Source of the DNA: Chloropicon primus
Taxonomy: Eukaryota
Reading direction: 5' to 3'
Length of the DNA stretch: 64,000 bases
NCBI GenBank assembly: GCA_023205875.1
Contig: CP060761.1
Coordinates: 1 to 64,000 of the forward strand
The stretch's first letter is position 1. Every line of letters starts with the position of its first letter. The notes under the pieces were generated by a model, which was not told the origin of the DNA, did not search any database, and was given only the letters and a program-made list of their open reading frames with translations. Below are positions 1 to 36,745 of the stretch, in pieces. Position numbers and translations under genes: made by a program.

Positions 1-218
1 GCCTAAGGCCTAAAGGCCTGGGCCTGGGCCTAAGGCCTGGCCTAAGGCCTGGGCCTGGAGCCTAAGGCCTGGGCCTAAGGCCTAGGCCTAAAGCCTAAGG
101 CCTAAGGCCTAAAGGCCTAAAACCTAAAACCTAAAACCTAAAACCTAACAACCTAACAACCTAACAACCTAACAACCTAACAACCTAACAACCTACAAAC
201 CTACAATCCTAAACCTAA
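1..218 (+). repeat. Telomeric/telomere-variant repeat tract at the chromosome end (C-rich strand)
   Basis: 4 perfect CCTAAAA units at 116-143 and 6 CCTAACAA units at 144-191, followed by degenerate CCTACAAA/CCTACAAT/CCTAAA. Positions 1-115 are irregular CCTAAGG/CCTAAAGG/CCTGGG variants. A C-rich strand at the window's 5' end is the expected orientation for a left telomere (G strand TTTTAGG). Confidence 0.85.
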
Positions 219-912: not shown

Positions 913-2462
913 AACCGCATGTTTTCCTTCTGGTATAGGTTTAAGTGTGATCTGGGTTTTAGTCGGCCCTAAACCAGGTCGCATAAGACGACGGATTCCA
1001 GCAGAAGAGTGGATCAGGGTAAGGTTTACGATTGGACCTCGTTATTCTCTGGTGCCCTAGATTGCACTCCACCCGGAACAGGTCTCTCCATCACGGACTC
1101 CATTCACATAACATCATCATCATCCATGGAGGTCTGTGGTTTGGGTTTTAGTGGTCCGACAGATGGACCTGTACAGGTTCGACGACGACGGAAACATACA
1201 CCATATTAGAGGAGTATTCAAATATAAAATACAAGCCCCTTCTGACAAAGTTTTACAGCCATCGGACACGAACTGGATCCGTCACTCCACTATTCGTGCC
1301 AAAAAGTAGGCCCCAAAATGGACAATAATAGCTACAGAATCATATCATACACACCTACATTACACAATCAACTCAGCATGAACCAAACCAAGAGGATCCA
1401 AGCCACGAACAACTACCCACAGACACCTCTCCTCGCCTTCCCTCCTCTCCCACACTCCAGCATTGCCCCAAGAACACCTCACCTCTCCCACCCCTCGACG
1501 CCGGTGCCCGGACCCGAGCACACATCATCTGGCCCCTCCTCCCACTCATTGTCATGGTCCATGACTCATGGAGCAAGGCCACTGAGATCAACGCATTCCA
1601 ATAACCCCAATTGGGCCCCCACAGACCCAAAGACACCTCAAAATCAATCATGTGCCTCTCCGCTGGACCTCCATTAGCCCCTCCACAGGCCCTCCATCAG
1701 CTCCCCATGAGGTTCTCCAAGCCTAATCAGAAGATGCCACCAAAGTCCACCGATGAACCCAACACACAGAAGCATTCCAACACTAACATAACAACCCAAG
1801 ATCACCTCCTCACCTCCCCTCTCCTCTCCGCCATCACCCAGCAGGCTGGGCTTGGGCGTGGTGATTCACCATGCATTGTGTCAGCCCCCGGGCCGGGGCC
1901 ATGGAGCAGAAGAACTACTGAAGGGGCACGAACAAGTCACCCAAAACCACAGAGATGCCCTTCGACCCACTCATTGCCCCCAACATTCTCCTCCCCTCCC
2001 CTCCCACACTCCTGCATTGCCCCAAACAGCCTCCTCCCTCTCCCTCGACGGCGGTGCGGGTGGGCTGCCCCTTGTCCCATCCCATCTGTGCCTCTCTCCT
2101 GGCCACCCTCAGCCCAAGCAAACCTCTTGGAACCTTGGCAAAGCAAACGCATGAAGCGCCTCTGCATTCCTTGGGGACCTCAAGTTGGGGTTAGGGCCTG
2201 GTTCCTTTGGGCATCCGATGTGAGTGACCCAACCGGGGCTTCGCCTGGTCGCGGCTCGCGCGTCGTCGGGTCGGTCGGATGGGGTCGGGGCTCGTGAAGA
2301 TCGAGTTGAGGACGCAGGGGTAGAGAGTGCAGAAGTAAATAGAAAAGATCTAATATTATTAAAATAGGATTCTACTTAGGAAAATTTGTTAGTTTAATTT
2401 TTTTATCATCATAACGCCTTTCATTCTCTTGATGAAGGCTTGGGCGTAAAACTTTTCACGCT

Positions 2463-5400
2463 CTACTTCTTCTCATTTCTCAACTTGGCAATAGCCTTGA
2501 GCTTCATGCGGGCCTTCTGCCACTCAGGTGCAGCGGTAGTTGTGCTCGTCCTCGATCTTCTGAAAGAATGGAGCTTCTCCACGCTCCTGAGCTTGGAGCG
2601 AGCCTGGTTGATGAGCTTGCAGAAGTCAGACTTCTCATCCGTGGACATGCTGCTGTTGAGCAGAGTTCCTTGCTCGATCTTGTTCAAGCTCTGCTTCAAG
2701 ATATGAAGCTTGTCAGAGGTGAGCTGCTGGGTGTTGCCCTCCTTGCTGACCACCTCATCCTGGCTGTCAACGAGCGTGGTACTCAGCTCCTGCCAGGTGT
2801 GCATCGCAAACTCAAGATCCCTTTCCGTGGTAGTCTCAACGACACTCTGAGAAAGCTGCGAGATGGAAGCTTCAAACTCCTTTCCAAGCAACTCCATGCT
2901 TTCCTCGATACTGCTCTCAGACACGTTTGCGGTCTGCTTCGTGCTTGTGCTGTAAAGAGGGTTGCTGTAAGCAGACGAAGAGATGTTCTTGCTCCTGCCG
3001 TCGTCAAGAAGCTCGCTACCCTCGCCGTCACTTCCTTGTGGCGACTCGGCTATGGATGGCATAATGTTCTCGTCCTCCTCTTCCTTGTCGAACAGAGGGT
3101 TGGACAAGAAAGACATTCTGGCACCAGACTTCATAGCAATCGTGCTCTTCCTGGACTTTCCTCCAGAAAGTCCGAACATAGGGTTCATCAAAAGCATGCT
3201 CTGTCTCGAGTTTGGCTCGGACTTGTTGGATCCCTGGCTCACCGCAGAATACTGGGCGGAGCTTGGAGCAGCATTGCTCTCTCTCTTTCTCTTCTGCCTG
3301 ACGTACACGAAGGCAAGTCCCATCATGCAGCAGACGGCTGCACCGACGATGCCACCGACCATGACCATGGAAACGGAAGCAGTGGAAACCTCGCCCTCGG
3401 CGTCTCCGGTCTCGGACTCGAGCTTTCCGCCTTCCGTCTCCTCGACCTCGGAGGACGTCGTATCGCTTCCGTCGTGCGACTGGCCATCTTCAGAGTCTTG
3501 TCCCTCGCCATCAGAGTTAGAATCTTCATCATCCGTCACAACGCCAGACCCATCTGTCGAGTTCGAGGCTGGAGGTGGTGGCGGCGGCGACAGCTGCTCG
3601 CACCCGCTTGTGGTACAAGACTGGAAGTCCTGCGTGTAAGCACACTCCTTTCCATTGTTTTCGGCTGAGCTGACGATGTTGAAAAGTCTGCATCTAGTGT
3701 AGAGTCCAACGCCGGCATCCAGCTTGCATTCACCGTAGTCAGAGAATTCTCCAACGCAATCCACTGGAGCTCCGCATCCCTGGGAGGAGCACTTGAGCTC
3801 GTTGTGAGTGTAGTCACACTGCGTTCCGTTGTATGCGCTTGGTACAGAAACTTCGTACCTCCTGCACTTGACGTTCTCCTCAGCAATAGTATCGAACCAG
3901 CATCCGCCTTGGTCCATCCATTTGCCAACACAGTCCACTGGCTGAGAGCATTCCTCGTTGGTGCACTGCTTGAGGTTGTCCACGAATGGACAGGCAAAAC
4001 CGTTGTGAGCAGCGTTGGTGCTGATCTTGTAGTGCCTGCACTTCTTGTTCTTGTGGTTCTCCTCATCGTAGAAGCACTCGTCATACTTGTCCCAAGCTCC
4101 GACGCAGTCGACAGGCTGCGTGCAACCGCTCACAGTGCACTGCACATAGCTATCAGCGTATGGGCAAGCATATCCACTGTGGGCAGCAGCTCTCTCAACC
4201 TCGTAGGTGCGGCATCTCTTGTTCTTGTGAGACTCGGCGTCATGGGTGCACACACCATAGTCGCCCCATTGTCCCAAGCAGTCCACTGGCTGGGCGCAGC
4301 CCTCAGTGGTGCACTGCTTGTAGGAGTTCTTGTATGGGCATCCGTAACCGTTGTGTGCGGCACTCGTGCTGACAGAGTAAGTCCTGCACCTCCTGTTCTT
4401 GTGGTCGTTCGTGTCGTGGAAGCAGGCGCCGTAGGCACCCCAGTCTCCAACACAGTCCACAGGCTGCTCGCAGTTCTCTTGCTCGCATTCCACAAGCCCA
4501 TCCTTGAATGGACACTGAGTGCCTCCCAAGTCCGCCTTGGTGCTGACAAGATAGGTTCTGCACCTCTCGTTCTTGTGATCAGCAGCAACGTGGTTGCAGC
4601 TGCCGTACGTAGTCCACTCGCCCTCGCAGTCCACAGGCTGGCCGCAGCCGCTCTTGGTGCATTGCTTGAGCTTGTCCTCGTGTGGGCAAGCAAAACCGTT
4701 GTTGGCGGCAGCCTGGCTCACACTGTACACGCGGCAGCGCTCGTTCTCGTGATCGTTCTCGTCGTAGTGGCAGGCATCGTAGTCACCCCAAGATCCGACG
4801 CAGTCCACAGGCTGGGCGCACTCCTCGGTGGTGCACTGCTCGAACTCGTTGGCGTATGGGCAAGCATAACCGTTGTGAGTCGAAGGCACGGCAACCTTGT
4901 ACAGTCTGCACCTTTTGTTCTTGTGCTCCTCGGTATCGTGGTAGCACTCGGCATACTCGTCCCAGGCTCCGACGCAGTCAACAGGCTGGACGCAGAGCTC
5001 GGTGCTGCACTGGATGTAACTGTCAGTGTATGGGCAAGCATATCCATTGTGGGCAGCAGACCTCTCAACCTCGTAAGTCCTGCACTTCTTGTTCTTGTGA
5101 GAGTCATCATCATGAATGCAAGATCCCCACTTGGACCATTCTCCCAAGCAGTCCACAGGCTGAGAGCAGCCCTCAGTGGTGCACTGCTTGTAGGTGTTCT
5201 TGTATGGGCATCCATAACCGTTGTGGGCGGCAAGGGTGCTGACAACGTAGTGCCTGCACCTCCTGTTCTGGTGATCGTCGCTGTCATGGAAGCAAGAGCC
5301 ATAAGGACCCCAGTCTCCAACACAGTCAACAGGCTGAGAGCAGCTCTGAGTAATACACTCGATCTTGCCGTCCTTGTAAGGACAGTCCTTTCCGTTCAAT

Positions 5401-29400: not shown

Positions 29401-32400
29401 CTCCTGTTCTTGTGGTCAGAGGCAGTATGCTTACAGGATCCGTAGGCACCCCAGGAGCCAACACAGTCCACAGGCTGAGAGCAACCAGAAGTGGTGCACT
29501 GCTCAAAGTTGTTGGTGTATGGGCATCCATAACCGTTGTGGGCGGCGTTGGTGCTGTACTTGTAGTTTCTGCACCTCCTGTTCTTGTGATCAGAGGCAGT
29601 ATGCTTACAGGACCCGTAGGCACCCCAAGCACCGACGCAGTCCACAGGCTGAGCGCATCCACCAGTAGTGCAGGACACCTGGTTGTTGCTGTGTGGGCAC
29701 GACTTGCCATTAGTTGCTGGAGCTGTGGTGACCTTGTAGGTCTTGCACCTCTCATTCTTGTGACCAGAAGCAACGTGCTTACAAGAGCCATAAGCTCCCC
29801 ACTCGCCTTCGCAATCGACAGGCTGTCCACAACCACTCTTGGTGCAATGTTTCTCCCCATTTGTATGCAAGCAAGCATATCCACTGTTCTTTGTGTTCTG
29901 TGTGATCACAAACGTGCGGCACCTTTCGTTCTCGTGGTCCTTCTCATCGTAGAAGCATGCTCCATAAGAAGCCCAAGCACCAACACAGTCCACAGGCTGG
30001 GAGCAGCCCGACGTGGTGCACTGCTGGAAGTTGTTCGTGTATGCACATCCATAACCGTTGTGGGCAGCGCTCTTCGAAATCTTGTAGTTCCTGCATCGCC
30101 TGTTCTTGTGATCTTCATCATGCTTGCATGAGCTGTATGGATCCCATGCACCGACGCAGTCCACAGGCTGGGAGCAACCAGAAGTGGTGCACTGCTTGAA
30201 CATGTTGGTGTATGCACATCCATAACCGTTGTGGGCAGCGTTGGTAGCGATCTTGTAGAACCTGCACTTTCTGTTCTTGTGGTCAGCAGTGTCGTGCTTG
30301 CATGGGCCATAGTTGTCCCAAGAGCCGGCACAGTCCACAGGCTGAGAGCAACCAGACTGAGTGCACTGCTTGTACATGTTGGTGTATGGGCATCCATAAC
30401 CGTTGTGAGCAGCGTTCGTGCTATACTTGTAGTGCCTGCACCTCCTGTTCTTGTGGTCCTTTCCATCATGATAGCAAGCTGCATATGGACCCCAAGCACC
30501 AGCGCAGTCCACAGGCTGAGAGCAACCAGAAGTGGTGCACTGCTCAAAGTTGTTGGCATATGGGCATCCATAACCGTTGTGAGCGGCGTTGGTGCTGTAC
30601 TTGTAGTTTCTGCACCTCCTGTTCTTGTGGTCAGAGGCAGTATGCTTACAAGACCCGTAGGAACCCCAAGCACCAGCGCAGTCCACAGGCTGAGAGCATC
30701 CACCAGTAGTACACTGCTGGAAGTTGTTGGTGTGTGGGCACCCATAACCGTTGTTCGCAGCGTTGGTGCTCACCTTGTACAACCTGCACCTCCTGTTCTT
30801 GTGGTCAGCAGTGTCGTGCTTGCATGAGCCATAGTCGTTCCATGCACCGACGCAGTCCACAGGCTGAGAGCAACCAGAAGTGGTACAAGACTTGTACATG
30901 TGAGTAAATGGGCATCCATAACCGTTGTAGGCAGAGTTGGTAGTGATCTTGTAGTGCCTGCACTTTCTGTTCTTGTGGTCAGACGCGGTATGCGTGCATG
31001 AACCATATGGGTTCCAGGATCCAACACAGTCCACAGGCTGAGAGCAACCAGACTGAGTGCACTGCTTGTACATGTTGGTGTATGGGCACCCATAACCGTT
31101 GTTCGCGGCGTTGGTGCTGTACTTGTAGTGCCTGCACCTCTTGTTCTTGTGGTCCTTTCCATCGTGGTAACAAGATCCATAGGCATCCCAAGCACCGACG
31201 CAGTCAACAGGCTGAGCGCATCCACCAGTAGTGCACTGCTCAAAGTTGTTCGTGTAGGCACACTTGAAACCGTTGTGGGCAGCAGCAGTGGTGATCTTGT
31301 AGTTCCTGCATCTCTTGTTCTTGTGATTAGAAGCCTCGTGCTTGCACGAGCCATAAGCCCCCCAAGCCCCGACACAGTCCACAGGCTGAGCGCAGCCAGA
31401 AGTGGTACAGGACTTGTAGTTGTTAGCGTATGGGCAAGAATATCCATTGTGGGCGGCATTCTTGCTAATCAGATAGAACCTGCAACGTTCGTTCTTGTGA
31501 ACGCTTGGCGCAAGAAGAGATCTCCTCGAGAAAGGCATGGACAAGTCCATTCCATCAGGAGACAACTTCGGGTTCGCAAGATCCAACTTGAGGCCACCAA
31601 CATACGAGCAAGAACTGTAAGAGCCCCAAGCACCGACGCAGTCCACAGGCTGAGAGCAACCAGAAGTGGTGCACTGCTTGTACATGTTGGTGTATGGGCA
31701 TCCGTAACCGTTGTGAGCAACGTTGGTGCTGTACTTGTAGAACCTGCACTTTCTGTTCTTGTGGTCCTTGGAATCATGCTTGCATGGGCCATATGGATCC
31801 CAAGCACCAGCGCAGTCCACAGGCTGAGAGCAACCAGACTGAGTGCACTGCTCAAAGTTGTTGGTGAATGGGCATCCATAACCGTTGTGAGCGGCGCTCT
31901 TTGTGTACTTGTAAGTTCTGCACCTCCTGTTCTTGTGGTCAGAGGCAGTATGCTTACAGGATCCGTAGGCACCCCAGGAGCCAACACAGTCCACAGGCTG
32001 AGAGCAACCAGAAGTGGTGCACTGCTCAAAGTTGTTGGTGTATGGGCATCCATAACCGTTGTGGGCGGCGTTGGTGCTGTACTTGTAGTTTCTGCACCTC
32101 CTGTTCTTGTGATCAGAGGCAGTATGCTTACAGGACCCGTAGGCACCCCAAGCACCGGCGCAGTCCACAGGCTGAGAGCAACCAGACTGAGTGCACTGCT
32201 GATAGTTGTTGGTGTATGGGCATCCATAACCGTTGTGAGCAGCACTCTTGCTGTAAATGTACTTTCTGCACCTGTAGTTCTTGTGGTCAGAGTTCTGGTG
32301 AAAGCAAGATCCGTAGGAACCCCAAGCACCAGCGCAGTCCACTGGCTGAGAGCAACCAGAAGTTGTGCACTGCTTGTAGTTGTTGGTGTATGGGCATCCA

Positions 32401-35400
32401 TAACCGTTGTTCGCGGCGTTGGTGCTGTACTTGTAGTTTCTGCACCTCCTGTTCTTGTGGTCCTTTCCATCGTGGTAACAAGATCCATAGGCACCCCAAG
32501 CACCGACGCAATTAACAGGCTGAGCGCATCCACCAGTAGTGCAGGACACCTGGTTGTTGCTGTGTGGGCACGACTTGCCATTAGTTGCTGGAGCTGTGGT
32601 GACCTTGTAGGTCTTGCACCTCTCATTCTTGTGACCAGAAGCAACGTGCTTACAAGAGCCATAAGCTCCCCACTCGCCTTCGCAATCGACAGGCTGTCCA
32701 CAACCACTCTTGGTGCAGTGTTTCTCCCCATTTGTATGCAAGCAAGCATATCCACTGTTCTTTGCGTTCTGTGTGATCACAAACCTGCGGCACCTTTCGT
32801 TCTCGTGGTCCTTCTCATCGTAGAAGCATGCTCCATAAGAAGCCCAAGCACCAACACAGTCCACAGGCTGGGAGCAGCCAGACTGAGTGCACTGCTTGTA
32901 GTTGTTGCTGTATGGGCATCCATAACCGTTGTGAGCAGCACTCTTGCTGTACTTGTAGTACCTGCACCTGTAGTTCTTGTGGTCAGAACTCTGGTGGTAA
33001 CAAGAACCGTAGGAACCCCAAGCACCAGCGCAGTCCACAGGCTGGGAGCAACCAGAAGTGGTGCACTGCTTGTAGTTGTTGGTGTATGGGCATCCATAAC
33101 CGTTGTGGGCAGCGCTCTTGCTGTACTTGTAGTACCTGCACCTCCTGTTCTTGTGGTCCTTTCCATCATGATAGCAAGCTGCATAGGAACCCCAAGCACC
33201 AGCGCAGTCCACAGGCTGAGAGCAACCAGACTGAGTGCACTGCTGATAGTTGTTGGCATATGGGCATCCATAACCGTTGTGAGCAGCACTCTTGCTGTAA
33301 ATGTACTTTCTGCACCTGTAGTTCTTGTGGTCAGAGTTCTGGTGAAAGCAAGATCCGTAGGAACCCCAAGCACCAGCGCAGTCCACTGGCTGAGAGCAGC
33401 CAGAAGTTGTGCACTGCTTGTAGTTGTTGTTGTATGGGCATCCCTTTCCACTGTGGGCAGCGTACTTGCTGTACTTGTAGTACCTGCATCTCCTGTTCTT
33501 GTGGTCAGAATCGTGAGCACAAGACCCGTAGGCACCCCAAGCACCAGCGCAGTCCACAGGCTGAGAGCAACCACCAGTAGTGCAAGACACATAGTTGTTT
33601 GTGAAAGGGCATCCATAACCGTTGTGCGCAGCACTCTTGCTGTACTTGTACACCCTGCATCTCTCGTTCTTGTGTCCCATCAAAACATACTTGCAAGAGC
33701 CATAGGCAGCCCAAGCACCAACACAGTCCACAGGCTGAGAGCAGCCAGACTGAGTGCACTGCTTGTAGTTGTTGCTGTATGGGCATCCATAACCGTTGTG
33801 GGCAGCGCTCTTGCCGTACTTGTAGTACCTGCACCTGTAGTTCTTGTGGTCAGAACTCTGGTGGTAACAAGAACCGTAGGAACCCCAAGCACCAGCGCAG
33901 TCCACAGGCTGGGAGCAGCCAGAAGTGGTGCACTGCTTGTAGTTGTTGCTGTATGGGCATCCATAACCGTTGTGGGCAGCGCTCTTGCCGTACTTGTAGT
34001 ACCTGCACCTGTAGTTCTTGTGGTCAGAAACCTGATGGAAGCAAGAGCCATAGGAAGCCCAACCACCAGCACAGTCCACAGGCTGAGAGCAGCCAGAAGT
34101 GGTGCACTGCTTGTAGTTGTTGCTGTATGGGCATCCATATCCACTGTGAGCAGCACTCTTGCTGTACTTGTAGTACCTGCACCTGTAGTTCTTGTGGTCA
34201 GAACTCTGGTGGTAACAAGAACCGTAGGAACCCCAAGCACCAGCACAGTCCACAGGCTGGGAGCAACCAGAAGTGGTGCACTGCTTGTAGTTGTTGCTGT
34301 ATGGGCATCCAGCACCATTGTGAGCAGCGCTCTTGCTGTACTTGTAGTACCTGCACCTGTAGTTCTTGTGGTCAGAACTCTGGTGGTAACAAGAACCGTA
34401 GGAACCCCAAGCACCAGCACAGTCCACAGGCTGGGAGCAACCAGAAGTGGTGCACTGCTTGTAGTTGTTGCTGTATGGGCATCCAGCACCATTGTGAGCA
34501 GCGCTCTTGCTGTACTTGTAGTACCTGCACCTGTAGTTCTTGTGGTCAGAACTCTGGTGGAAGCAAGACCCGTAACCACCCCAAGCACCAACACAGTTCA
34601 CAGGCTGAGAGCAGCCAGAAGTTGTGCACTGCTGATAGTTGTTGCTGTATGGGCATCCATGACCGTTGTGGGCAGCACTCTTGCTGTACTTGTAGTTTCT
34701 GCACCTCCTGTTCGTTGAACCGCTCTTGTGGCAACCTCCATAGGCACCCCAAGCACCAACGCAATTCACAGGTTGGGTACAACCGCTTGTCGTACAACCC
34801 TGATGTCCATGGCCGTACGAGCAACCAGAACCGCCGTGAGCAGGCCAGGTACTGTAACTGTACTTCCTGCAGCGCTGGTTCTTGTGGCCTGAGCTTGTGT
34901 AGTGACAGCTTCCATAGCTACCCCAACTTCCGGCACAGTTCACAGGCTGAGTACAACCGCTGGTGGTACAGGACTGCTGGCCATTGCTGGCTCCACAGCC
35001 GGAACCACCATGGGCAGCGTTCCTCGTCACCTTGTAGCTTCTGCACCTCCTGTTCGTTGAGCCGCTCTTGTGGCAACCTCCATAGCTGCCCCAACTACCG
35101 GCACAGTTCACAGGCTGAGAGCAACCGCTGGTGGTACAGGACTGCTGGCCATTGCTGGCTCCACAGCCCGCACCGCCGTTCTGAGGGTGGACGGTGTACC
35201 TGTAGGTCTTGCACTTTCTGTTTTGGGAGCCAGACTTGTGGCAACCTCCGTATCCAGTCCAGTAACCTTGGCAGGCAACCGCTTTTGGGCAACCGCCCGT
35301 AGTGCAGTCCGCGTGCCAGTTACCGTATGGGCAACCAGGTCCTCCGTTCTGAGCAGAAACAGAGTGCCTGTAGTGCCTGCACTTCTGGCCGCCGCTGCAA

Positions 35401-36266
35401 CCTCCGTAGCTGGTCCAGTAACCTTGGCAGGCCACTGCTTTGGGGCAGCCGGACGTGGAGCAGTCGCCGTGGTAGTTACCGTAAGGGCAACCAGCTCCGC
35501 CGTTCTGGGCGGAGGTGGTGTGCACGTAGTACCTGCACTTCTGACCGCCGCTGCAACCTCCGTAGCTGGTCCAGTACCCCGCGCAGTTCACCGGTTTTGG
35601 GCAACCTGAGCTCGTGCACTGTGATTCTCCAGTTTTCATACACAGAAGATTTCTGCGTGGTGAGCTGGTGACACCACTGAACTCGCTCTCGCTCGCTCCC
35701 TGCAAGTTCCTCCTCCACCTCCCGTAGCTGTACCTGTTGTAGATACTGCTGTACGAGTACCTCGAGGAGTACGAGTACCTGCTGTAGCTATAATATGGAA
35801 TATAATAGCTCGTGGGCGCGACATAGGGCGCGACGTAGGGCGCAACGTAGGGCGCAACGTAAGGCTTTGGTGCAACGTAGGTCGAGGTGTAAGCTCTGCA
35901 CCTCTGGCCTCCGGAGCACGAACCGTACGAGTTCCAGTACCCAGAGCACTGGAGCTGACGTCCCACGCGTCCTTCCTGGTCCGCTTCGGACCAAAGCTCG
36001 AACTTCTCCGCGCTTTCTTCACCCTTCTCGGTACCAAACACTGTTGTATCAGTCAAGGCTGACTCGGTGACGTTCTCGGCGTCACCCGTCTCAGCCTTTC
36101 CTTGCCTCAAGAGGTTTGGGACCACGTCTTGCACAAGATCGTGAGCAGGGCCTGCATGCTTGCTTTCAGGAATAGCGGCAAGCACTAGACCAAGCAAGCA
36201 CCCTGTCACGAGCAAGACGGCAAGAAGGATGGACTTCCTCTCCGAACCAAATCCAAAAGACCTCAT
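2463..36266 (-). CDS. Giant (11,267 aa) single-pass membrane protein with ~180-185 thrombospondin type-1 (spondin-like) repeats
   Basis: Uninterrupted ORF. Hydrophobic N-terminal signal peptide (ILLAVLLVTGCLLGLVLA). ~58-aa repeat QPVDCxGxWxxYxxC...HKNxRCRxYxx...AxxNGxxCP...xCxxxxC with 6 Cys and the W/R pattern of spondin-type TSRs. Pro/acidic stalk at ~3380-3595, TM helix VSMVMVGGIVGAAVCCMMGLAFVYV (3301-3375) followed by the stop-transfer RQKRKR, and a ~278-aa cytoplasmic tail. Confidence 0.9.
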   Translation of the reverse strand: MRSFGFGSERKSILLAVLLVTGCLLGLVLAAIPESKHAGPAHDLVQDVVPNLLRQGKAETGDAENVTESALTDTTVFGTEKGEESAEKFELWSEADQEGRVGRQLQCSGYWNSYGSCSGGQRCRAYTSTYVAPKPYVAPYVAPYVAPYVAPTSYYIPYYSYSRYSYSSRYSYSSIYNRYSYGRWRRNLQGASESEFSGVTSSPRRNLLCMKTGESQCTSSGCPKPVNCAGYWTSYGGCSGGQKCRYYVHTTSAQNGGAGCPYGNYHGDCSTSGCPKAVACQGYWTSYGGCSGGQKCRHYRHSVSAQNGGPGCPYGNWHADCTTGGCPKAVACQGYWTGYGGCHKSGSQNRKCKTYRYTVHPQNGGAGCGASNGQQSCTTSGCSQPVNCAGSWGSYGGCHKSGSTNRRCRSYKVTRNAAHGGSGCGASNGQQSCTTSGCTQPVNCAGSWGSYGSCHYTSSGHKNQRCRKYSYSTWPAHGGSGCSYGHGHQGCTTSGCTQPVNCVGAWGAYGGCHKSGSTNRRCRNYKYSKSAAHNGHGCPYSNNYQQCTTSGCSQPVNCVGAWGGYGSCFHQSSDHKNYRCRYYKYSKSAAHNGAGCPYSNNYKQCTTSGCSQPVDCAGAWGSYGSCYHQSSDHKNYRCRYYKYSKSAAHNGAGCPYSNNYKQCTTSGCSQPVDCAGAWGSYGSCYHQSSDHKNYRCRYYKYSKSAAHSGYGCPYSNNYKQCTTSGCSQPVDCAGGWASYGSCFHQVSDHKNYRCRYYKYGKSAAHNGYGCPYSNNYKQCTTSGCSQPVDCAGAWGSYGSCYHQSSDHKNYRCRYYKYGKSAAHNGYGCPYSNNYKQCTQSGCSQPVDCVGAWAAYGSCKYVLMGHKNERCRVYKYSKSAAHNGYGCPFTNNYVSCTTGGCSQPVDCAGAWGAYGSCAHDSDHKNRRCRYYKYSKYAAHSGKGCPYNNNYKQCTTSGCSQPVDCAGAWGSYGSCFHQNSDHKNYRCRKYIYSKSAAHNGYGCPYANNYQQCTQSGCSQPVDCAGAWGSYAACYHDGKDHKNRRCRYYKYSKSAAHNGYGCPYTNNYKQCTTSGCSQPVDCAGAWGSYGSCYHQSSDHKNYRCRYYKYSKSAAHNGYGCPYSNNYKQCTQSGCSQPVDCVGAWASYGACFYDEKDHENERCRRFVITQNAKNSGYACLHTNGEKHCTKSGCGQPVDCEGEWGAYGSCKHVASGHKNERCKTYKVTTAPATNGKSCPHSNNQVSCTTGGCAQPVNCVGAWGAYGSCYHDGKDHKNRRCRNYKYSTNAANNGYGCPYTNNYKQCTTSGCSQPVDCAGAWGSYGSCFHQNSDHKNYRCRKYIYSKSAAHNGYGCPYTNNYQQCTQSGCSQPVDCAGAWGAYGSCKHTASDHKNRRCRNYKYSTNAAHNGYGCPYTNNFEQCTTSGCSQPVDCVGSWGAYGSCKHTASDHKNRRCRTYKYTKSAAHNGYGCPFTNNFEQCTQSGCSQPVDCAGAWDPYGPCKHDSKDHKNRKCRFYKYSTNVAHNGYGCPYTNMYKQCTTSGCSQPVDCVGAWGSYSSCSYVGGLKLDLANPKLSPDGMDLSMPFSRRSLLAPSVHKNERCRFYLISKNAAHNGYSCPYANNYKSCTTSGCAQPVDCVGAWGAYGSCKHEASNHKNKRCRNYKITTAAAHNGFKCAYTNNFEQCTTGGCAQPVDCVGAWDAYGSCYHDGKDHKNKRCRHYKYSTNAANNGYGCPYTNMYKQCTQSGCSQPVDCVGSWNPYGSCTHTASDHKNRKCRHYKITTNSAYNGYGCPFTHMYKSCTTSGCSQPVDCVGAWNDYGSCKHDTADHKNRRCRLYKVSTNAANNGYGCPHTNNFQQCTTGGCSQPVDCAGAWGSYGSCKHTASDHKNRRCRNYKYSTNAAHNGYGCPYANNFEQCTTSGCSQPVDCAGAWGPYAACYHDGKDHKNRRCRHYKYSTNAAHNGYGCPYTNMYKQCTQSGCSQPVDCAGSWDNYGPCKHDTADHKNRKCRFYKIATNAAHNGYGCAYTNMFKQCTTSGCSQPVDCVGAWDPYSSCKHDEDHKNRRCRNYKISKSAAHNGYGCAYTNNFQQCTTSGCSQPVDCVGAWASYGACFYDEKDHENERCRTFVITQNTKNSGYACLHTNGEKHCTKSGCGQPVDCEGEWGAYGSCKHVASGHKNERCKTYKVTTAPATNGKSCPHSNNQVSCTTGGCAQPVDCVGAWGAYGSCKHTASDHKNRRCRNYKYSTNAAHNGYGCPYTNNFEQCTTSGCSQPVDCVGSWGAYGSCKHTASDHKNRRCRTYKYTKSAAHNGYGCPFTNNFEQCTQSGCSQPVDCAGAWDPYGPCKHDSKDHKNRKCRFYKIATNVAHNGYGCPYTNMYKQCTTSGCSQPVDCVGAWGSYSSCSYVGGLKLDLANPKLSPDGMDLSMPFSRRSLLAPSVHKNERCRFYLISKNAAHNGYSCPYANNYKSCTTSGCAQPVDCVGAWGAYGSCKHEASNHKNKRCRNYKITTAAAHNGFKCAYTNNFEQCTTGGCAQPVDCVGAWDAYGSCYHDGKDHKNKRCRHYKYSTNAANNGYGCPYTNMYKQCTQSGCSQPVDCVGSWDPYGACFHDSSVHKNKRCRHYKITVAAAHNGYGCPYTNMYKSCTQSGCSQPVDCAGSWDEYGACKHTASDHKNRRCRYYKVATNAANNGYGCPFANMYESCTTGGCSQPVDCAGAWDSWITHADGNVCGYNKDGHKNEKCRLYKISVQAAHNGYQCPQQNNYKQCTTSTCSQPVDCVGAWDSYGTCKHVAAGHKNEKCRLYKVSIAAKHNGKGCPHTHNKEECTKATCAQPVDCVGAWGVYSTCFHDDKDHKNRRCRVYKIATNKASNGYGCPYANAFEQCTTEGCAQPVDCLGAWDDYSECERDLTTNKNQKCRTYAVERASSHNGYTCPFADSYVQCTMTGCLQSVDCEGGFAPYGPCKHDTDEHKNKRCRLYKVSVASMFGGAACPYANEAEDCTATGCAQPVDCVGSWGAYGECHYEEADHENERCRVYAVSTAAANNGYACPHEDKLRTCTKSGCGQPVDCEGEWGAYGTCQHVKDSHKNERCRTYKVTTKADLNGVQCPFEDQKVECTTNSCSQPVDCAGDWGAYGSCKHYTSDHKNRRCRTYAITTNAAHNGVGCPYVNTYKQCTTDGCAQPVDCVGAWDAYGSCSYVSKDHTNTRCRLYKITVTSAHNGYSCAYANDYKQCTKSGCAQPVDCVGSWDSYGDCSHDTETHKNKRCRLYKLTTSAAHSGHACPYANKFEQCTNVGCAQPVDCVGSFGAFGTCSYVESDHSNQRCRLYGITQPALNNGYACPHQDKMNQCTKNGCGQPVDCEGQWGAYGSCKHVAHGHKNEKCRTYKVTTKEDLNGKKCPFEDKKVECSTDSCTQPVDCVGDWGAYGACFHDDKDHKNRRCRNYKITTSVAHNGYGCAYANEYKQCTTEGCAQPVDCLGAFGDYGACKHDDDVHKNKKCRTYVVERASSHNGYACPYADSYVQCTTEHCAQPVDCVGTFGDYYSCFYDKDSHKNKRCRFYKITVTPLNDGYACPYEDKFEQCSTNMCSQPVDCVGAWDDYSECSHDENVHKNKKCRTYKVSVVSAHNGNACPYTNELEQCTNDGCAQPVDCVGSWGAYDACHYEEADHENERCRVYSVSQAAANNGYACPHEDKLRTCTKSGCGQPVDCEGEWTSYGSCQHVKDGHKNERCRTYKVTTKADLNGVQCPIADQKVECTTNSCSQPVDCVGDWNSYGACFHDTNDHKNRRCRTYAITTNAAHNGVGCPYVNTYKQCTTEGCTQPVDCLGAFGEYDACMHDDKTHKNKKCRTYAVTRVSSHNGYACAYANEYVQCTVSGCAQPVDCVGAWDSYSSCDHDKDAHKNKRCRLYKISVASANNGYACAYTDKLEQCTTEQCVQPVDCVGAWGNYADCKYVADGHKNERCRLYSITQLELNNGYVCPHKDGLQQCTQNLCSQPVDCEGEWSAYDNCKHVTHGHKNERCRTYKVSVSDAFGGNKCPYEDKKVECTKDQCSQPVDCAGAWGAYGACKHVASSHKNERCRVYAITTNVAHNGFGCAYANAYEQCTTEGCAQPVDCLGAWQEYGACVHDKESHKNKKCRTYVVERASSHNGYTCPYADSYIQCSTNLCTQPVDCVGAWEHYDACKHDKDAHKNKKCRTYKVSVVSAHNGNACPYANKLEQCTNDGCAQPVDCVGSWGAYDACHYEEADHENERCRVYSVSQAAANNGYACPHEDKLRTCTKSGCGQPVDCEGEWTSYGSCQHVKDGHKNERCRTYKVTTKADLNGVQCPIADQKVECTTNSCSQPVDCVGDWNSYGACFHDTNDHKNRRCRTYAITTNAAHNGVGCPYVNTYKQCTTEGCAQPVDCLGAFGEYDACMHDDKTHKNKKCRTYAVTRVSSHNGYACAYANEYVQCTVSGCAQPVDCVGAWDSYSSCDHDKDAHKNKRCRLYKISVASANNGYACAYTDKLEQCTTEQCVQPVDCVGAWGNYADCKYVADGHKNERCRMYSVSQAAANNGYTCPNEDGLTHCTKNGCSQPIDCLGEWSQYSACNHVADGHKNEKCRTYKVSVSDAFNGKVCPFEDKKVECSTDLCSQPVDCVGAWGAYSACKHVASSHKNERCRVYAITTNVAHNGFGCAYANAYEQCTTEGCAQPVDCLGAWQEYGACVHDKESHKNKKCRTYVVSRAVAHNGYACPYADSYIQCSTDMCTQPVDCVGAWDDYSQCSHDDEGHKNQKCRTYKISVQSAHNGISCPFKDKLEQCTKSGCSQPVDCVGAWDSYSSCDHDKDAHKNKRCRLYKISVASANNGYACAYTDKLEQCTTEECSQPVDCVGSWGNYDACHYNKDNHENKRCRMYSVSQAAANNGYTCPNEDGLTHCTTSGCGQPVDCEGEWSQYSACNHVADGHKNEKCRTYKVFVPVSDNGKVCPFEDKKVECTKEQCSQPVDCVGAWGAYSTCFHDDKDHKNRRCRVYAITTNVAHNGFGCPYANAFKQCTTEGCAQPVDCLGAWEEYGACIHDKESHKNKKCRTYVVERASSHNGYTCPYADSYIQCSTNLCTQPVDCVGAWDDYSECSHDEELHKNKKCRTYKVSVESAHNGNACPYTNELEQCTNDGCAQPVDCVGSWSEYGTCMYIDADHENERCRTYVVTRASENNGYACPHEDKLKHCTKSGCGQPVDCEGEWTSYGSCQHVKDGHKNERCRTYKVTTKADLNGVQCPIADQKVECTTNSCSQPVDCVGDWNSYGACFHDTNDHKNRRCRTYAITTNAAHNGFGCAYLNAYKQCTTEGCAQPVDCLGAFGEYDACMHDDKTHKNKKCRTYAVTRVSSHNGYACAYSDSYVQCTVSGCAQPVDCVGAWDEYAECSHDKDAHKNKRCRLYKISVASANNGYACAYTDKLEQCTTEECAQPVDCVGSWGNYDACHYNKDNHENKRCRMYSVSQAAANNGYTCPNEDGLTHCTTSGCGQPVDCEGEWSQYSACNHVADGHKNEKCRTYEVTTKADLNGKVCPFEDKKVECTKDQCSQPVDCVGAWGAYSTCFHDDKDHKNRRCRVYAITTNVAHNGFGCPYANAFKQCTTEGCAQPVDCLGAWEEYGACIHDKESHKNKKCRTYVVERASSHNGYTCPYADSYIQCSTNLCTQPVDCVGAWDDYSECSHDEELHKNKKCRTYKVSVESAHNGHACPYTNELEQCTNDGCAQPVDCVGSWGAYDACHYEEADHENERCRVYSVSQAAANNGYACPHEDKLRTCTKSGCGQPVDCEGAWDPYGSCQHFKDGHKNERCRTYKVTTKADLNGVQCPFEDKKVECTTNSCSQPVDCAGDWGAYGVCFHDSNKHKNLRCRTYIVSTNAAHNGFGCPYVNTYKQCTVEGCEQPVDCLGAWDEYGACAHDEKTHKNKRCRTYNVDRPSAYDGYSCAYADKYVQCTTEECAHPVDCVGAWDEYAECSHDKDAHKNKRCRLYKISVASANNGYACAYTDKLEQCTTEECAQPVDCVGSWGNYDACHYNKDNHENKRCRMYSVSQAAANNGYTCPNEDGLTHCTTSGCGQPVDCEGAWELWSACNHVDAEHKNEKCRTYKVSVPDAFGGNKCPFEDKKVECSTDLCSQPVDCVGDWGAYSTCFHDTSDHKNRRCRVYAITTNVAHNGFGCPYANAYKQCTTEGCAQPVDCLGAWEEYGACIHDKESHKNKKCRTYVVERASSHNGYTCPYADSYIQCSTNLCTQPVDCVGAWDDYSECSHDEELHKNKKCRTYKVSVESAHNGNACPYTNELEQCTNDGCAQPVDCVGSWGAYDACHYEEADHENERCRVYSVSQAAANNGYACPHEDKLRTCTKSGCGQPVDCEGEWSLYGSCFHKEDGHVNERCRTYKVTTVADYSGSQCPFEDQKVECTTNSCSQPVDCVGDWGSYGTCFHDKSDHKNRRCRTYKITTSVAHNGFGCPYTNEYEQCTTDGCAQPVDCIGEWLDYSECVYNGETHSNQKCRRFSVDRKAANNGFECAYADNYYQCTKQTCEQPIDCEGVWQKLDEGRCTYDAVNHENRNCTQYVVTRTLKNSGHACPHTDKYTQCTTEFCDQPVNCVGDWSGYSDCKYDAAGHYNYNCRTYSVSQPALDNGHACPYEDDLQQCFQAGQGERGCDQPVDCEGEWSVYGACKHVEASHKNDRCRTYKVTTSSVHNGKTCPHDDGLVECTTEECSQPVDCVGAWGAYDACFHDVQDHKNRRCRVYAITTNVAHNGFGCAYANAYKQCTTEGCAQPVDCLGAWEEYGACIHDEKDHKNKKCRTYVVSRAVAHNGYTCPYADSYIQCSTNLCTQPVDCVGAWDDYSECYHESELHKNKRCRLYKVTVEPENNGFACLYANDFKQCTTEECAQPVDCVGAWTEYSSCDYLEEGHENERCRVYEVSQPGSNNGFACPHEDKLKQCTKSGCSQPVDCEGEWSVYSACNHVAADHKNEKCRTYKVTTTAFFNGKQCPFEHNKIECNAKTCSQPVDCIGGFSSWGACYLDPKDHKNRRCRTYDITTNAAHNGFGCPYKNAFEECSTEGCAQPVDCVGAWSEYEGCTYDEAVHSNTNCRTYTVTTVGENGGFSCPFANATVQCSKALCLQPVDCVGEFTEFSSCIFKKDEHKNEKCRTYVVERESANNGYTCPYADSYIQCSTNMCNQPVDCVGAWDEYAECYYEKENHKNKRCRTYKVTVASGHNGHACPYTNELEECTNDGCAQPVDCVGSWEEYGECSYEEAEHMNQRCRVYAVTTPAANNGYACPHENKLKHCTKSGCGQPVDCEGDWTLFSSCNHVAHGHKNERCRTYKVAVTANLNGKACPIADQKVECTTNSCSQPVDCVGDWNSYGACFHDTNDHKNRRCRTYAITTNVAHNGVGCPYTNTYKQCTTEGCTQPVDCVGAWSEYTECTHDVDAHKNKKCRTYVVSRASSHNGYTCPYADSYVQCSTDMCDQPVDCVGAWDEYSQCKYVEDLHANDRCRVFKVSTPEANNGHKCLHPHNITECTMSECSQPVDCLGSWTEYGACNYESLDHENERCRMYNVTRVAEYNGMQCLHKDQERHCTKGGCGQPVDCEGEWGLYSPCMHNPDTHENEQCRQYKVTTESDLSGKKCPHEHDLVECVQDKCQQPVDCVGAWNSYGACFHDNSDHKNRRCRSYNISTFDDFSGYACPYANEFEQCTTEGCAQPVDCLGAWTEYDACVHDEESHKNKKCRTYVVSRAVAHNGYTCPYADSYIQCSTELCTQPVDCVGAWEEYAECNYDTENHKNKRCRLYKVTVPAAHSGYACPYTNTLKQCTSEGCAQPVDCVGGWSDYSKCEYDEGDHENERCREYVISQPAANGGYSCPHVEAAVQCTKSGCGQPVNCEGEWSLYTSCEYVAKEHKNERCRTYKVITKADLGGNQCPFEDEKVECTTNSCSQPVDCVGDWGSYGTCFYDDMHHKNRRCRTYVVATNAAHNGVGCPYTDKYEQCTVEGCAQPVDCLGAWTDYDACVYDKEAHKNKKCRTYEVERAVAHSGYACPYTDSYVQCTFEGCTQPVNCVGAWDEYGTCFHDKDSHQNKRCRLYKVSVPAASEGYACPYADKLEQCTTEECAQPVDCVGAWGVYSECKYVADDHANERCRVYSISQIALNNGYDCPYEDSLTQCTNVGCGQPIDCEGEWGSWDSCAYVAGEHINQKCRTYSISTEAHLHGTECPYEDKKVECTKDQCSQPVDCVGAWGAYDACFHDVQDHKNRRCRVYAITTDVAHNGVGCPYANAYKQCTTEGCTQPVDCLGAWEEYGACIHDEKDHKNKKCRTYVVSRASSHNGYTCPYADSYIQCSTSLCTQPVDCVGAWDEYAECYHDEEAHENKRCRLYKVTVASGHNGFACPYADKLEQCTNDGCAQPVDCVGSWGAYGECSYEVSDHENERCRVYEVSQPALNNGYACPHEDKLRTCTKSGCGQPVDCEGEWSLYGSCEHVADGHKNERCRTYKVTTVKDFGGKACPFEDKKIECTTNSCSQPVDCVGDWGSYGACFHDDDDHKNRRCRTYAITTNAAHNGFGCAYLNAYKQCTTEGCAQPVDCLGAWTEYDACIYDKDMHKNKKCRTYEVERAVAHSGYACPYADMYIQCSTDLCDQPVDCVGAWDDYAECFHDEDAHKNKRCRLYKVSVAAAHNGYACPYANELEQCTNDGCAQPVDCVGAWDNYGACLYKDNEHENERCRVYSVSQKALNNGYTCPYEDKHKHCTKSGCGQPVDCVGAWESYSSCKHVEAGHKNERCRTYVVNTEAALGGTECPFEDKKVECTTEECSQPTDCVGAWGAYDACFHDVQDHKNRRCRVYAITTDVAHNGYGCAYANAYKQCTTEGCAQPVDCLGAWEQYGACVHDEKDHKNKKCRTYVVSRASSHNGYTCPYADSYIQCSTELCTQPVDCVGAWDDYSECYHDKEAHDNKKCRTYTVAVESAHNGIACAFEDKLEQCTTVDCAQPVDCVGAWDNFSQCTHDEEAHKNKKCRTYKISVASANNGHACPYTHELEQCSLEECSQPVDCVGAWSHYGDCKYVSEGHENERCRVYTISQTALHNGYECPHTHNLNHCTKSGCGQPIDCEGEWSAWDSCTHVDGQHKNQKCRSYKISADSGLGGQECPHKDGLVECSTDECSQPIDCVGAWGAYSACAHDKEDHKNRRCRVYAISTNVAHNGFGCPYANAYKQCTTEGCAQPVDCLGAWGTYGDCVHDDDTHKNKKCRTYVVSRASAHNGFTCPYADSYVQCSTELCVQPVDCVGAWDDYSDCFHNKEVHDNKRCRLYKISVAATNNGYACPYTDKLEQCTTEECAQPVDCVGAWSEYAACEYLKHSHENERCRVYEVSQPALNNGFVCPHEDKLRTCTKSGCGQPVDCEGEWSLYGSCEHVADGHKNEKCRTYKVITDADLNGKACPFEDKKIECTTNSCSQPVDCVGAWGAYDTCFHDSNKHKNLRCRVYAIATDAASNGVGCPYLNAYKQCTTEGCEQPVDCVGAWSEYDACIHDDQTHKNKKCRTYVVSRPAAHSGYACAYADNYGQCTSEGCAQPVDCVGAWDKYAACFNDAEAHNNKRCRLYKISVAATNNGYACPYANELEQCTTEECAQPVDCVGTWGDYEPCHYNSKEETNERCRMYSVTQVALNDGYTCPFEHDERQCMTGGCGQPVDCEGAWTTYDACKHVEDGHKNDHCRTYKVVTPASLNGKLCPHLNGLVECTTDDCTQPVDCVGDWEAYGACFHDDADHKNRRCRNYKIATAASHNGYGCAYANAYKQCTTEGCAQPVDCLGAWEQYGACTHDDKTHKNKKCRTYAVSRAAAHSGYACPYADSYQQCTVSGCTQPVDCEGDWDIYGSCYYDKDTHKNKRCRLYKVRVFATHNGYACPYRNEYKQCTVDECPQPVDCVGAWGAYDACHYENYEHENERCRVYSVLQSALNNGYACPHADQLKQCTKSGCGQPVDCEGEWSEYGNCNHVEDGHKNERCRAYKVTTVPDLGGKQCPHLNGLVECESSTCTQPVDCVGDWGEYGMCYHDDQDHKNRRCRNYIVSTDVAHNGFGCPYANAYKQCTTEGCAQPVDCLGQWGSYTDCVYNENQHTNSRCRTYVVERAAAHMGYACAYTDSYVQCTVSGCAQPIDCVGAWDEYDECFHDEELHKNKRCRLYKVSVPSAFNGYACPYANELEQCTTDKCSQPVDCVGAWQAYGVCSHNDLHHHNERCRVYAVTTPAVNSGYACPHEDKLQQCTKSGCGQPVDCQGEWTSFDSCKHVDDTHVNERCRTYEVNTSPALNGKDCPYKDGKIECITQSCSQPVDCVGDWGPYGSCFHDSDDHQNRRCRHYVVSTLAAHNGYGCPYKNTYKQCTTEGCSQPVDCLGEWSKWGSCIHDDDSHKNKKCRTYEVERSAAHNGYACPYTDSYIQCSTELCVQPVDCVGAWDEYAECYHDTEEHKNKRCRLYKVAVPSTHNGYACPYANEFEQCTTEECAQPVDCVGSWGDYDACHYDENDHENERCRVYSVSQAAANNGFACPHEDKLKQCTKSGCGQPVDCEGEWTTYGSCNHVAADHKNERCRTYLVSTKADLGGTQCPFKDGLVECEQENCEQPVDCVGDWGAYGACFHDTNDHKNRRCRTYSVSTSAAHNGYGCPYKNSYKQCTTEGCAQPVDCLGQWGDYGVCTHDAESHKNKRCRTYEVERAAAHSGYACPYADSYVQCTVSGCTQPVDCVGAWDKYDECFYDEENHKNKKCRHYKISTNAAHNGFACPFVDNLKQCTNEECSQPVDCVGKWMDQGGCWFDTIAEENVKCRRYEVSVPSAYNGTQCDYTHNELKCSSQGCGAPVDCVGEFSDYGECKLDAGVGLYTRCRLFNIVSSAENNGKECAYTQDFQSCTTSGCEQLSPPPPPPASNSTDGSGVVTDDEDSNSDGEGQDSEDGQSHDGSDTTSSEVEETEGGKLESETGDAEGEVSTASVSMVMVGGIVGAAVCCMMGLAFVYVRQKRKRESNAAPSSAQYSAVSQGSNKSEPNSRQSMLLMNPMFGLSGGKSRKSTIAMKSGARMSFLSNPLFDKEEEDENIMPSIAESPQGSDGEGSELLDDGRSKNISSSAYSNPLYSTSTKQTANVSESSIEESMELLGKEFEASISQLSQSVVETTTERDLEFAMHTWQELSTTLVDSQDEVVSKEGNTQQLTSDKLHILKQSLNKIEQGTLLNSSMSTDEKSDFCKLINQARSKLRSVEKLHSFRRSRTSTTTAAPEWQKARMKLKAIAKLRNEKK

Positions 36267-36745
36267 CTTGGTTCAAAGAATCCCGAATTCCGTTCTTCTC
36301 CCTTGTCTTCTATATAATAGAGTTCACTGGAAGAGACGACTCATATTCCCGTGTTCGTCTCTCTTTCCCTTTCCTTGAGGGCGCTCGGGTTTCCTCTCCT
36401 CGTTTCCAAGAAGACGGAAAGTCCGACACCACTCGTGGCTGTGTGTTGCTTGCTCCTGGAGCAAGCGTGGCAGTTGGTTCTCTCGTAAGCGGAGACCTCG
36501 CTAGTTTTCTGAACCCCCTTGGTTCACCCCCCTCGGTTCACCCCAAGCCAGCCTCCCGGGCTCGACGAAAGAAAGGAAAGGGCTGTTAAGATAGAACAAG
36601 AACAAGTGGTATGCCCTTGTTGTAAGACGAGACGCAGGTTACAACGGGGTTACAACAAGAACAAGAACGAGAAGCATAGAACAAGAAGCATAGAACAAGG
36701 GTGTAGCACTCTCGCCGCGTATTCCGATGTGGAATACAACGAAAC

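Follow-up and report, generated by a model that had tools for sequence, protein, structure and literature searches.

A 33.8-kb gene beside a telomere of the green picoalga Chloropicon primus encodes a predicted surface protein of 11,267 residues, built largely from 184 tandem modules that represent a rewired variant of the thrombospondin type 1 repeat (TSR). The gene lies in the first 64,000 nucleotides of contig CP060761.1 (assembly GCA_023205875.1, forward strand), referred to here as the window, and all coordinates are positions in it. It is proposed, with a probability of about one half, that the protein is matured by proteases into a surface filament of ~0.8–1.0 µm that tethers the cell to anionic glycans. 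From the sequence, its transcription, its conservation and its predicted fold we infer the rest of this reading, including the existence of the protein, its location, its cleavage and its ligand.

The coding sequence is a single reverse-strand frame, from an ATG at 36266 to a TAG at 2463, with a predicted product of 1.248 MDa. It contains no N and no internal stop across 33.8 kb, in agreement with an earlier note made from the letters of this stretch. The same note gave the protein a signal peptide, some 180–185 six-cysteine modules, one transmembrane helix and a cytoplasmic tail. This architecture is confirmed: the module count is 184, and hydropathy detects only two hydrophobic segments, the signal peptide (from residue 10) and a helix (from about residue 10960). 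Transcription runs toward the telomere, and the stop codon is ~2.25 kb from the telomeric repeats, close to the ~2.3 kb first estimated. The largest exon of titin (~17 kb) is about half as long as this frame. Antisense open reading frames of up to 1,870 residues were rejected as genes; the coding sequence has only 18 TTA, CTA or TCA codons, and the long antisense frames are therefore taken to be its shadows.

Each of the 184 modules contains exactly six cysteines, and 170 are 58 residues long. In the numbering of model A1, the consensus is C4, W8, Y11, C14, H21-K-N23, R25-C26-R27, Y29, C42, Q/E50, C51 and C56. W8 occurs in 161 of 170 modules, R27 in 168 and the histidine of the HKN motif in 167, and the whole protein contains 505 histidines. 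Three module-rich parts of 1000 residues each, 3,000 of the 11,267 residues, were scanned with Pfam. The TSP1_spondin profile (PF19028) scored 119.7 and 87.9 bits in two of them (cut-off 41; 14 stretches and E 6e-35 within 1000 residues) and only 19.4 bits in the N-terminal one. From a single sequence, AlphaFold2 gave a predicted local distance difference test score (pLDDT) of 32. Supplied with an alignment of 110 three-module windows from the same protein, it modelled three modules with a pLDDT of 96 and a predicted template modelling score (pTM) of 0.63, with an equal strand pattern in every module. The top 13 Foldseek rows for this model are TSRs of properdin and thrombospondin-1 (E 8e-5 to 3e-3), and an Atlas search with the module returned TSR clusters. 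Each module is thus predicted to adopt the three-stranded TSR fold, and the assignment made in the earlier note withstands the profile check in two of the three parts. Four complex I entries matched by the module profile in PDB (E 0.06–0.18) were rejected as chance.

The modules share the three-stranded elongated fold (here predicted) and the extracellular tandem array (likewise predicted) with the group-2 (F-spondin-type, PF19028) TSRs, and with those of SCO-spondin, properdin and thrombospondin-1; they may also share the top disulfide between strands A and C and the stacked aromatic and arginine layers. Cysteines occupy both top-disulfide positions in 170 of 170 modules. Unlike canonical group-2 repeats, however, the modules lack the AB-loop cysteine of CxxxCG and carry cysteines in strands B and C instead. 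Group 1 (TSP-1-type), whose top disulfide joins the end of strand B to the start of strand C and which has no N-terminal cysteine, does not describe them either: their N-terminal cysteine is present, and RxR at the upper end of strand B is followed by none. The second tryptophan of WxxW is replaced by tyrosine (WxxY) in 159 of 170 modules, and the upper arginine by tyrosine in 166. Across the whole protein WxxW and WxxC each occur five times and CxxS/TC not at all, leaving motifs for C-mannose and O-fucose essentially absent. The modules are therefore a rewired TSR variant without animal-type glycosylation motifs.

A survey of cysteines in 819 unique full-span domains from the collected proteins found C26 in one of 661 domains with the loop cysteine, versus 138 of 158 domains without it. 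In 12 proteins of the family, all six cysteines are present in 289 of 299 unique modules of full span (65 partial ones excluded). The seven family modules without C26 have lost C51 as well, and in every one of them C14 and C56 remain. In thrombospondin-1, Arg440 pairs with Glu462 (PMC2173040), a register that places R27 opposite Q/E50 and C26 opposite C51. We infer disulfides C4–C42 and C14–C56, together with a new cross-strand pair, C26–C51, between strands B and C. The protein could hold up to 552 disulfides.

Charge is distributed unequally along the array. Modules 1–44 have a net charge of +155 (isoelectric point, pI, 8.9), versus −318 (pI 5.6) for modules 45–184, and the polarity recurs as a trend in the paralogue P0223. 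Modules 45–184 form ~27 super-repeats of five module types (four have six), and identity between modules peaks at lags of 5, 10, 16 and 26. Module 1 carries an insert with YVAP repeats, two RRNL[QL] sites and a tract rich in Tyr, Ser and Arg, of which Tyr makes up 22%. Putative cleavage sites of the type RxL[LQ] are limited to the pro-region and to loop inserts: one directly precedes the first cysteine, two are in the insert of module 1, and modules 25 and 39 have the others. Relatives keep them in equal settings, P0223 having ten internal ones. The motif resembles the consensus of site-1 protease. If a module closed by disulfides were cut internally, the chain would still hold together and a side peptide would be displayed. 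A link of four residues, QPVD, connects successive modules, which predicts a rod-like chain. With published TSR dimensions of ~15 × 20 × 55 Å, and a basic face that binds sulfated glycans (PMC2173040), 184 modules at 4.5–5.5 nm each yield 0.83–1.01 µm, in line with the length near 1 µm first proposed for the ectodomain. The published size of a Chloropicon cell is 2–4 µm.

The tail carries three NPx[FY] motifs, a number reached in none of 20,000 shuffled tails. It ends in a basic amphipathic motif of the type bound by calmodulin, for which the published 1-8-14 consensus specifies hydrophobic residues at positions 1, 8 and 14 and a net charge of +3 to +6. The motif has W, L and L at these positions and a net charge of +5, and 12 of 13 motifs compared fall inside the charge range; it may therefore bind calmodulin. 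All 12 family tails compared have the 1-8-14 spacing, and the 11 that are near-complete have two to three NPx[FY] motifs. The conserved domain of the tail is probably helical, and no family was assigned to it by Pfam, PDB or Atlas: the tail had no Pfam, PDB or usable Atlas match, and neither the tail profile nor the last 27 residues matched in PDB. A version of the terminal motif, 68% identical over 22 residues, also closes a lipoxygenase-like protein that is otherwise unrelated, at two metagenome loci, which suggests a portable binding motif. The latter protein is a 722-residue lipoxygenase-family frame (L003:622-2787 and L004:7991-10156; Pfam E 4e-63) that lies tail to tail with kinase-like frames and whose iron-ligand histidines look absent by eye.

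The giant gene is transcribed in the cultures of three studies, and RNA contigs reach across at least the 3′ 13.6 kb. Among the sequencing runs listed with matching contigs none is recorded as RNA, and run X1 is labelled 'DNA?'; contigs of X1, X4 and X5 skip the 118-nt intron (45262–45381) of a neighbouring gene and therefore behave as RNA. RNA contigs were compared over 2200–16000 and over the 5′ end of the gene. Of 30 bins in the former interval X1 covers 30, X4 18, X5 nine and X17 none. At least 99% identity to the window was found for 86 of 95 X1 contigs, among them the unique pieces 2405–4205 and 8643–9501. A joint at 12549–14290 with CT..AC ends was rejected as an intron, as an exact 32-nt repeat flanks it on both sides and the donor is non-consensus; 110 of 359 repeat pairs have a CT..AC register. 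An in-frame skip at this joint retains a slight probability. The X1, X4 and X5 contigs also hold a 79-nt module piece (window 9634–9712, two differences) within AT-rich, non-coding-looking flanks, a detached module fragment from elsewhere in the genome.

DNA data are consistent with a single copy of the gene. Among 14,365 module pairs compared, 20 are identical and 52 reach at least 95% identity; adjacent modules are 54% identical as protein and 64% as DNA, and the longest exact internal repeat is 714 bp. Run X3 was treated as DNA (~150x on single-copy contigs, intron never skipped). In X3 the duplicated block has 2x depth, and the three letters that distinguish its second copy are present in contigs. 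Depth over 30–33 kb is 4–7x in excess; hidden extra copies were rejected as the source of this ~6x depth, since simulation from the window alone gives 3–9x. The bin 33984–34647 has ~1x, less than the internal repeats would predict. DNA variants at 35181–35286 equal no internal copy, and could derive from the paralogue candidate A3770_08p50410. The published PacBio variant table has 12 rows for chromosome 8, none below position 279,850. The published single-nucleotide polymorphism table lists none of three locus tags sought, neighbours among them, and is hence uninformative.

At E ≤ 0.001 a library search matched 563 proteins, and the analysis drew on the 150 best of them. The nearest named relative in the first search was a protein of C. 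primus. The Chloropicon roscoffensis orthologue WZN58774.1 (P0205) has 4,337 residues and 68 modules and begins mid-module. Its tail is 80% identical to that of the giant, and most of its last 24 modules align in order with modules 156–184. Its N-terminus comes from assemblies whose tail is essentially identical to its own and in which 11, 18 or 31 modules are seen. These orthologues (P0004, P0185 and P0186) were not accepted as genuine short forms, because their ends are near-identical, their middles differ and a hybrid module marks the junction. Assembly collapse most likely produced them, though real deletion alleles might also do so. Modules 1–17 of P0205 are repeated almost exactly 26 modules on, by recent or assembly duplication, and P0205 is assigned to the precomputed family PF28357. 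Database copies of the orthologue are misnamed 'ricin B-type lectin' (WZN58774.1 itself) or 'Notch', and others are truncated or collapsed to 11–31 modules.

Tip modules of orthologues are 67–91% identical between species. Comparison with the metagenomic orthologue L001 gave a ratio of nonsynonymous to synonymous substitution rates (dN/dS) of 0.086 for the modules (102 codons) and 0.13 for the tail (265 codons); synonymous sites were close to saturation. On these sequence comparisons the gene is under purifying selection, with modules collinear across species. If accession numbers follow the locus tags, identifier arithmetic weakly suggests that the C. roscoffensis orthologue, at about gene 300 of ~900 on its chromosome, is non-telomeric.

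Paralogues sharing the tail are C. roscoffensis WZN59373.1 (5,961 residues, 85 modules by pattern count, tail 45% identical), C. primus A3770_18p81450 (2,522 residues, tail 27%) and P0210. The Chloropicon family is small, with members of 2,500–11,300 residues in three to four slowly diverging tail lineages. A3770_08p50410, which is 20 genes further along chromosome 8 and has an equal database hit and a published RNA depth of 0, is a candidate second giant in the C. primus genome. P0176 and P0223 have longer loop inserts, some with an extra six-cysteine mini-domain before RRSLL, which suggests side branches on the rod. A search for relatives of 5,500–17,500 residues scored none of 275 candidates; it does not indicate absence, because the 5,961-residue relative sat behind a shorter cluster representative. 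In prokaryote genomes, 21 pattern matches included none that was related. Five viral loci with TSRs contained canonical repeats only, without the rewired variant; these contigs (L005–L009) encode small membrane-anchored proteins with group-2 TSRs.

Table 1. Features of the giant gene and the adjoining chromosome end.
Feature	Position	Strand	Remarks
Telomeric repeats	1..218	+	Degenerate GCCTAAG-type units, then CCTAAAA/CCTAACAA
Subtelomeric 198-bp tandem repeat	217..910		3.5 copies, 96% matches
Probable transcript 3′ end	2398..2405	-	At genomic A-run; weak hint; RNA contigs from two studies: X1 stops at 2405, X5 at 2398
Coding sequence	2463..36266	-	Single frame; A3770_08p50210 by gene order
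Cytoplasmic tail, 278 aa (aa 10990-11267)	2466..3299	-	NPx[FY] x3, conserved domain, terminal basic motif
W1-L8-L14 basic amphipathic motif, aa 11249-11262	2481..2522	-	Net +5; calmodulin-binding-like
Three NPx[FY] motifs, aa 11028, 11056, 11102	2952..3185	-	
Transmembrane helix, aa ~10965-10989	3300..3374	-	Followed by basic stop-transfer stretch
Juxtamembrane linker, aa 10893-10964	3375..3590	-	Pro/Ser/acidic
Modules 45-184	3591..27965	-	Acidic stalk
Modules 2-44	27966..35585	-	Basic, Tyr-rich distal part
RRSLL putative cleavage site, module 39	28989..29003	-	In 30-aa loop insert; equivalent inserts in relatives
RRSLL putative cleavage site, module 25	31512..31526	-	In 30-aa loop insert
Module 1 with tip insert 35652-35894	35586..35948	-	Insert kept in orthologue and paralogue
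Putative pro-peptide	35949..36176	-	RQLQ end directly before first Cys; RKLQ/RQLQ at equal place in relatives
Predicted signal peptide, aa 1-30	36177..36266	-	Hydropathy only
Putative TATA-like element	36311..36319	-	Starts 53 nt before ATG

Neighbouring genes in the window match Pfam families for an acetyltransferase, prolyl oligopeptidase, fabH, RNA methyltransferase, HemA, a penicillin-binding protein, Myb and L22. The same order opens chromosome 8 in the published gene table (PMC6731263, Supplementary Data 2), which makes the giant the first gene, A3770_08p50210; as the published table gives no coordinates, this assignment rests on gene order. The table describes A3770_08p50210, the first annotated gene of chromosome 8, as a 'hypothetical protein' with a secondary Notch hit. 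Of the green algae compared there, only Bathycoccus gives a hit, Bathy09g00070 (E 1e-22), which, judging by its number, is also close to a chromosome end. The published C. primus telomere unit is CCTAAAAA, with which the repeats of the window agree; the outermost units (window 1–120) are degenerate, GC-rich GCCTAAG/GCCTGG rather than CCTAAAA, possibly through read-end error or as variant repeats.

Intronless genes are ordinary in this genome: the published average is 0.5 introns per gene, and the prolyl oligopeptidase, eIF3d, HemA and fabH domains of neighbours match Pfam nearly end to end inside single open reading frames. The contrast with intron-bearing neighbours drawn in the earlier note holds for the gene with the intron at 45262–45381; several other neighbours are single open reading frames. 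In the prolyl oligopeptidase region X3, X1 and X4 differ from the window at 40695 and 41708, and X5 at 40695 only, reflecting an allele or an assembly error. The window also encodes a 974-residue bifunctional penicillin-binding protein (transglycosylase and transpeptidase; 55492–58416, reverse strand), an observation in a chlorophyte that bears on plastid peptidoglycan remnants. According to the published table, Klebsormidium and Micromonas have homologues of it; two further PBP1A-like genes are listed there as well.

In the tethering reading, the 184-module protein would be exported and then trimmed into a semi-rigid thread of ~0.8–1.0 µm. A subtilisin-type secretory protease may cut after RxL[LQ], which would remove the pro-peptide, free the Tyr-rich tip peptide and nick the loop inserts while disulfides keep the chain whole. 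The acidic, five-module-periodic stalk would serve as a spacer that holds the basic, Tyr-rich tip off the cell. The cationic end would be the sticky part, and its targets may be the sialylated or sulfated wall glycans of the cell itself, other cells or particles; a published count of 59 sialyltransferases in the genome favours a glycan tether. Inside the cell, the NPx[FY] motifs may bind sorting or cytoskeletal adaptors (putatively PTB- or FERM-type), and Ca2+/calmodulin bound to the 1-8-14 motif may control display or retrieval of the filament.

Several observations weigh against parts of this proposal. RNA over the whole frame, sought in the earlier note, was found for the 3′ 13.6 kb; coverage of the 5′ end is thin, with no contig over 35312–36639 in the runs compared, which leaves a full-length mRNA as a prediction. 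Published RNA-seq depth of the gene is 2.54, versus 4–16 for its neighbours (PMC6731263). The three-module pTM of only 0.63 makes rigidity a tentative prediction, and the best VIA-align match of the model, a complement C8 chain, is weak (Z 4.1, root-mean-square deviation 2.5 over 49 residues). Thirteen non-family domains without C26 still align a cysteine at column 51, contrary to a C26–C51 pair; eight of these were inspected and resemble four-cysteine modules with canonical pairing. In the tail, a motif of the 1-8-14 type arises in 125 of 20,000 shuffles, and one of the motifs compared has a net charge of +2, under the consensus range. Finally, the Chloropicon wall has been published as thin, layered and smooth, with fibrils noted only for Chloroparvula. 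The predicted length agrees with the cell-scale filament of the earlier note; that it stands outward from the cell is a proposal only.

Given published electron microscopy of a thin, smooth wall, a structural element of the wall or coat is the main rival, although a rather unlikely one. The rods would lie tangentially in a thin layered wall, their basic ends on acidic stalks or wall glycans, and the five-module period would set a lattice spacing. Published descriptions of a smooth, thin, tri-layered wall report no projecting fibres, and the complementary charge blocks, regular super-repeat and architecture constant across species would suit such a lattice, as would RXL sites typical of diatom wall proteins (PMC5647440). 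The long conserved tail with its sorting-like and calmodulin-like motifs exceeds the needs of a static anchor, however, and the low published RNA depth and the specialised, conserved tip peptide also speak for something else. It is improbable that the protein is a cell–cell recognition factor or mating agglutinin of a rare sexual stage, with the silent paralogue as its partner or stage-specific version. Long rod agglutinins are present in Chlamydomonas. The published RNA depth of 0 for A3770_08p50410 in culture, and the meiosis and flagellar genes that are published as retained but quiet, would fit this role; transcription of the giant gene in sequenced cultures of three studies would not, nor would the conservation of tip modules between species, unlike species-recognition heads.

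A protective brush or decoy, in which an acidic filament repels viruses, bacteria and grazers by steric and charge effects and possibly binds metal through its 505 histidines, has an equally small chance. Its length, acidic stalk, protease-resistant disulfide-rich build and terminal chromosomal position are compatible with this role, as is the near-invariant HKN histidine; an arms-race gene would hardly show such strong purifying selection or collinear modules, and the five viral loci carry canonical TSRs only. It is very improbable that the length is an assembly artefact or that the gene is a decaying repeat expansion. The refuting outcome named in the earlier note, assembly-expanded repeats, draws some support from exact repeats of up to 714 bp, the 20 identical module pairs, the single low-depth bin at 33984–34647 and the short 11–31-module database forms. 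Against it stand the scarcity of near-identical module pairs, the stop-free frame, both copies of the duplicated block in DNA contigs at 2x depth, and the PacBio table, in which no variant is listed near the gene. Furthermore, at least 68 modules are present in C. roscoffensis, which was assembled independently; its collinear modules, together with a dN/dS of ~0.1 against the metagenomic orthologue, make an artefact unlikely.

Comparison with known systems sets the tethering proposal in context. The array holds 184 copies, versus 1–18 in a 2002 TSR survey, and the longest unrelated canonical arrays retrieved have ~40–45 repeats. Long TSR arrays as such are thus already known; what strongly recommends this one for study is its size, rewiring, putative processing sites and tail. 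The apicomplexan proteins TRAP, MIC2 and CTRP similarly combine a signal peptide, TSRs, one membrane helix and a tail tryptophan near the end. Published TRAP tails, however, are short and acidic with a sub-terminal tryptophan, and accompany vWA domains, and CTRP has at most seven TSRs. The giant has a 278-residue tail with a basic end and a tryptophan 19 residues from it, which sets it apart from TRAP-family tails, and no vWA domain was found within the 3,000 residues scanned by Pfam. With its repeated NPx[FY] motifs, the tail recalls those of integrin beta and LDL-receptor-type proteins, which likewise cross the membrane once; the giant lacks an integrin ectodomain, and the likeness is at motif level only.

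RXL has been described as the pro-peptide cleavage site of secreted diatom wall proteins, following the signal peptide in silaffins, cingulins and SAPs, of which the SAPs, like the giant, combine a membrane helix with a conserved domain in the cytoplasm (PMC5647440). No sequence relation to these proteins was seen, and the sites of the giant also occur inside disulfide-closed modules. The earlier note had further likened the gene to variable subtelomeric surface genes. The var, VSG and FLO/EPA genes are subtelomeric contingency genes, and share with the giant a surface protein (here predicted), internal tandem repeats and a position next to a telomere. Conserved module order, purifying selection (dN/dS ~0.1), few paralogues in a small family and the absence of a published length or long-read variant lend that likeness no support. 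As the earlier note supposed, no description of the giant or its family was found by full-text literature searches, from which subscription journals are largely missing, and these turned up no paper that pairs Chloropicon primus with thrombospondin.

In its boldest and still doubtful form, the proposal describes a single-molecule appendage of ~1 µm on a non-motile picoalga, the longest TSR array encountered in this analysis, made from a third disulfide class of TSR, nicked into a bottle-brush and wired to calcium/calmodulin and NPxY-type adaptors, as a counterpart of animal-style adhesion and sensing receptors that evolved independently in green algae. If this is true, the cell could make contact with bacteria, particles or mates at a distance of half its own diameter. 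With this family the TSR fold comes to include a rewired variant and ~10x the copy number of the classic survey, and its truncated, collapsed and misnamed copies illustrate how such genes hide in databases. Chloropicon is a dominant green alga of the open ocean, about whose surface almost nothing has been learnt. By keeping a protein of 1.25 MDa and paralogues of 2,500–6,000 residues in a streamlined genome, the cell would be investing heavily in its surface, and the family offers a testable candidate for sticking, aggregation, mate meeting and virus defence in picoeukaryotes.

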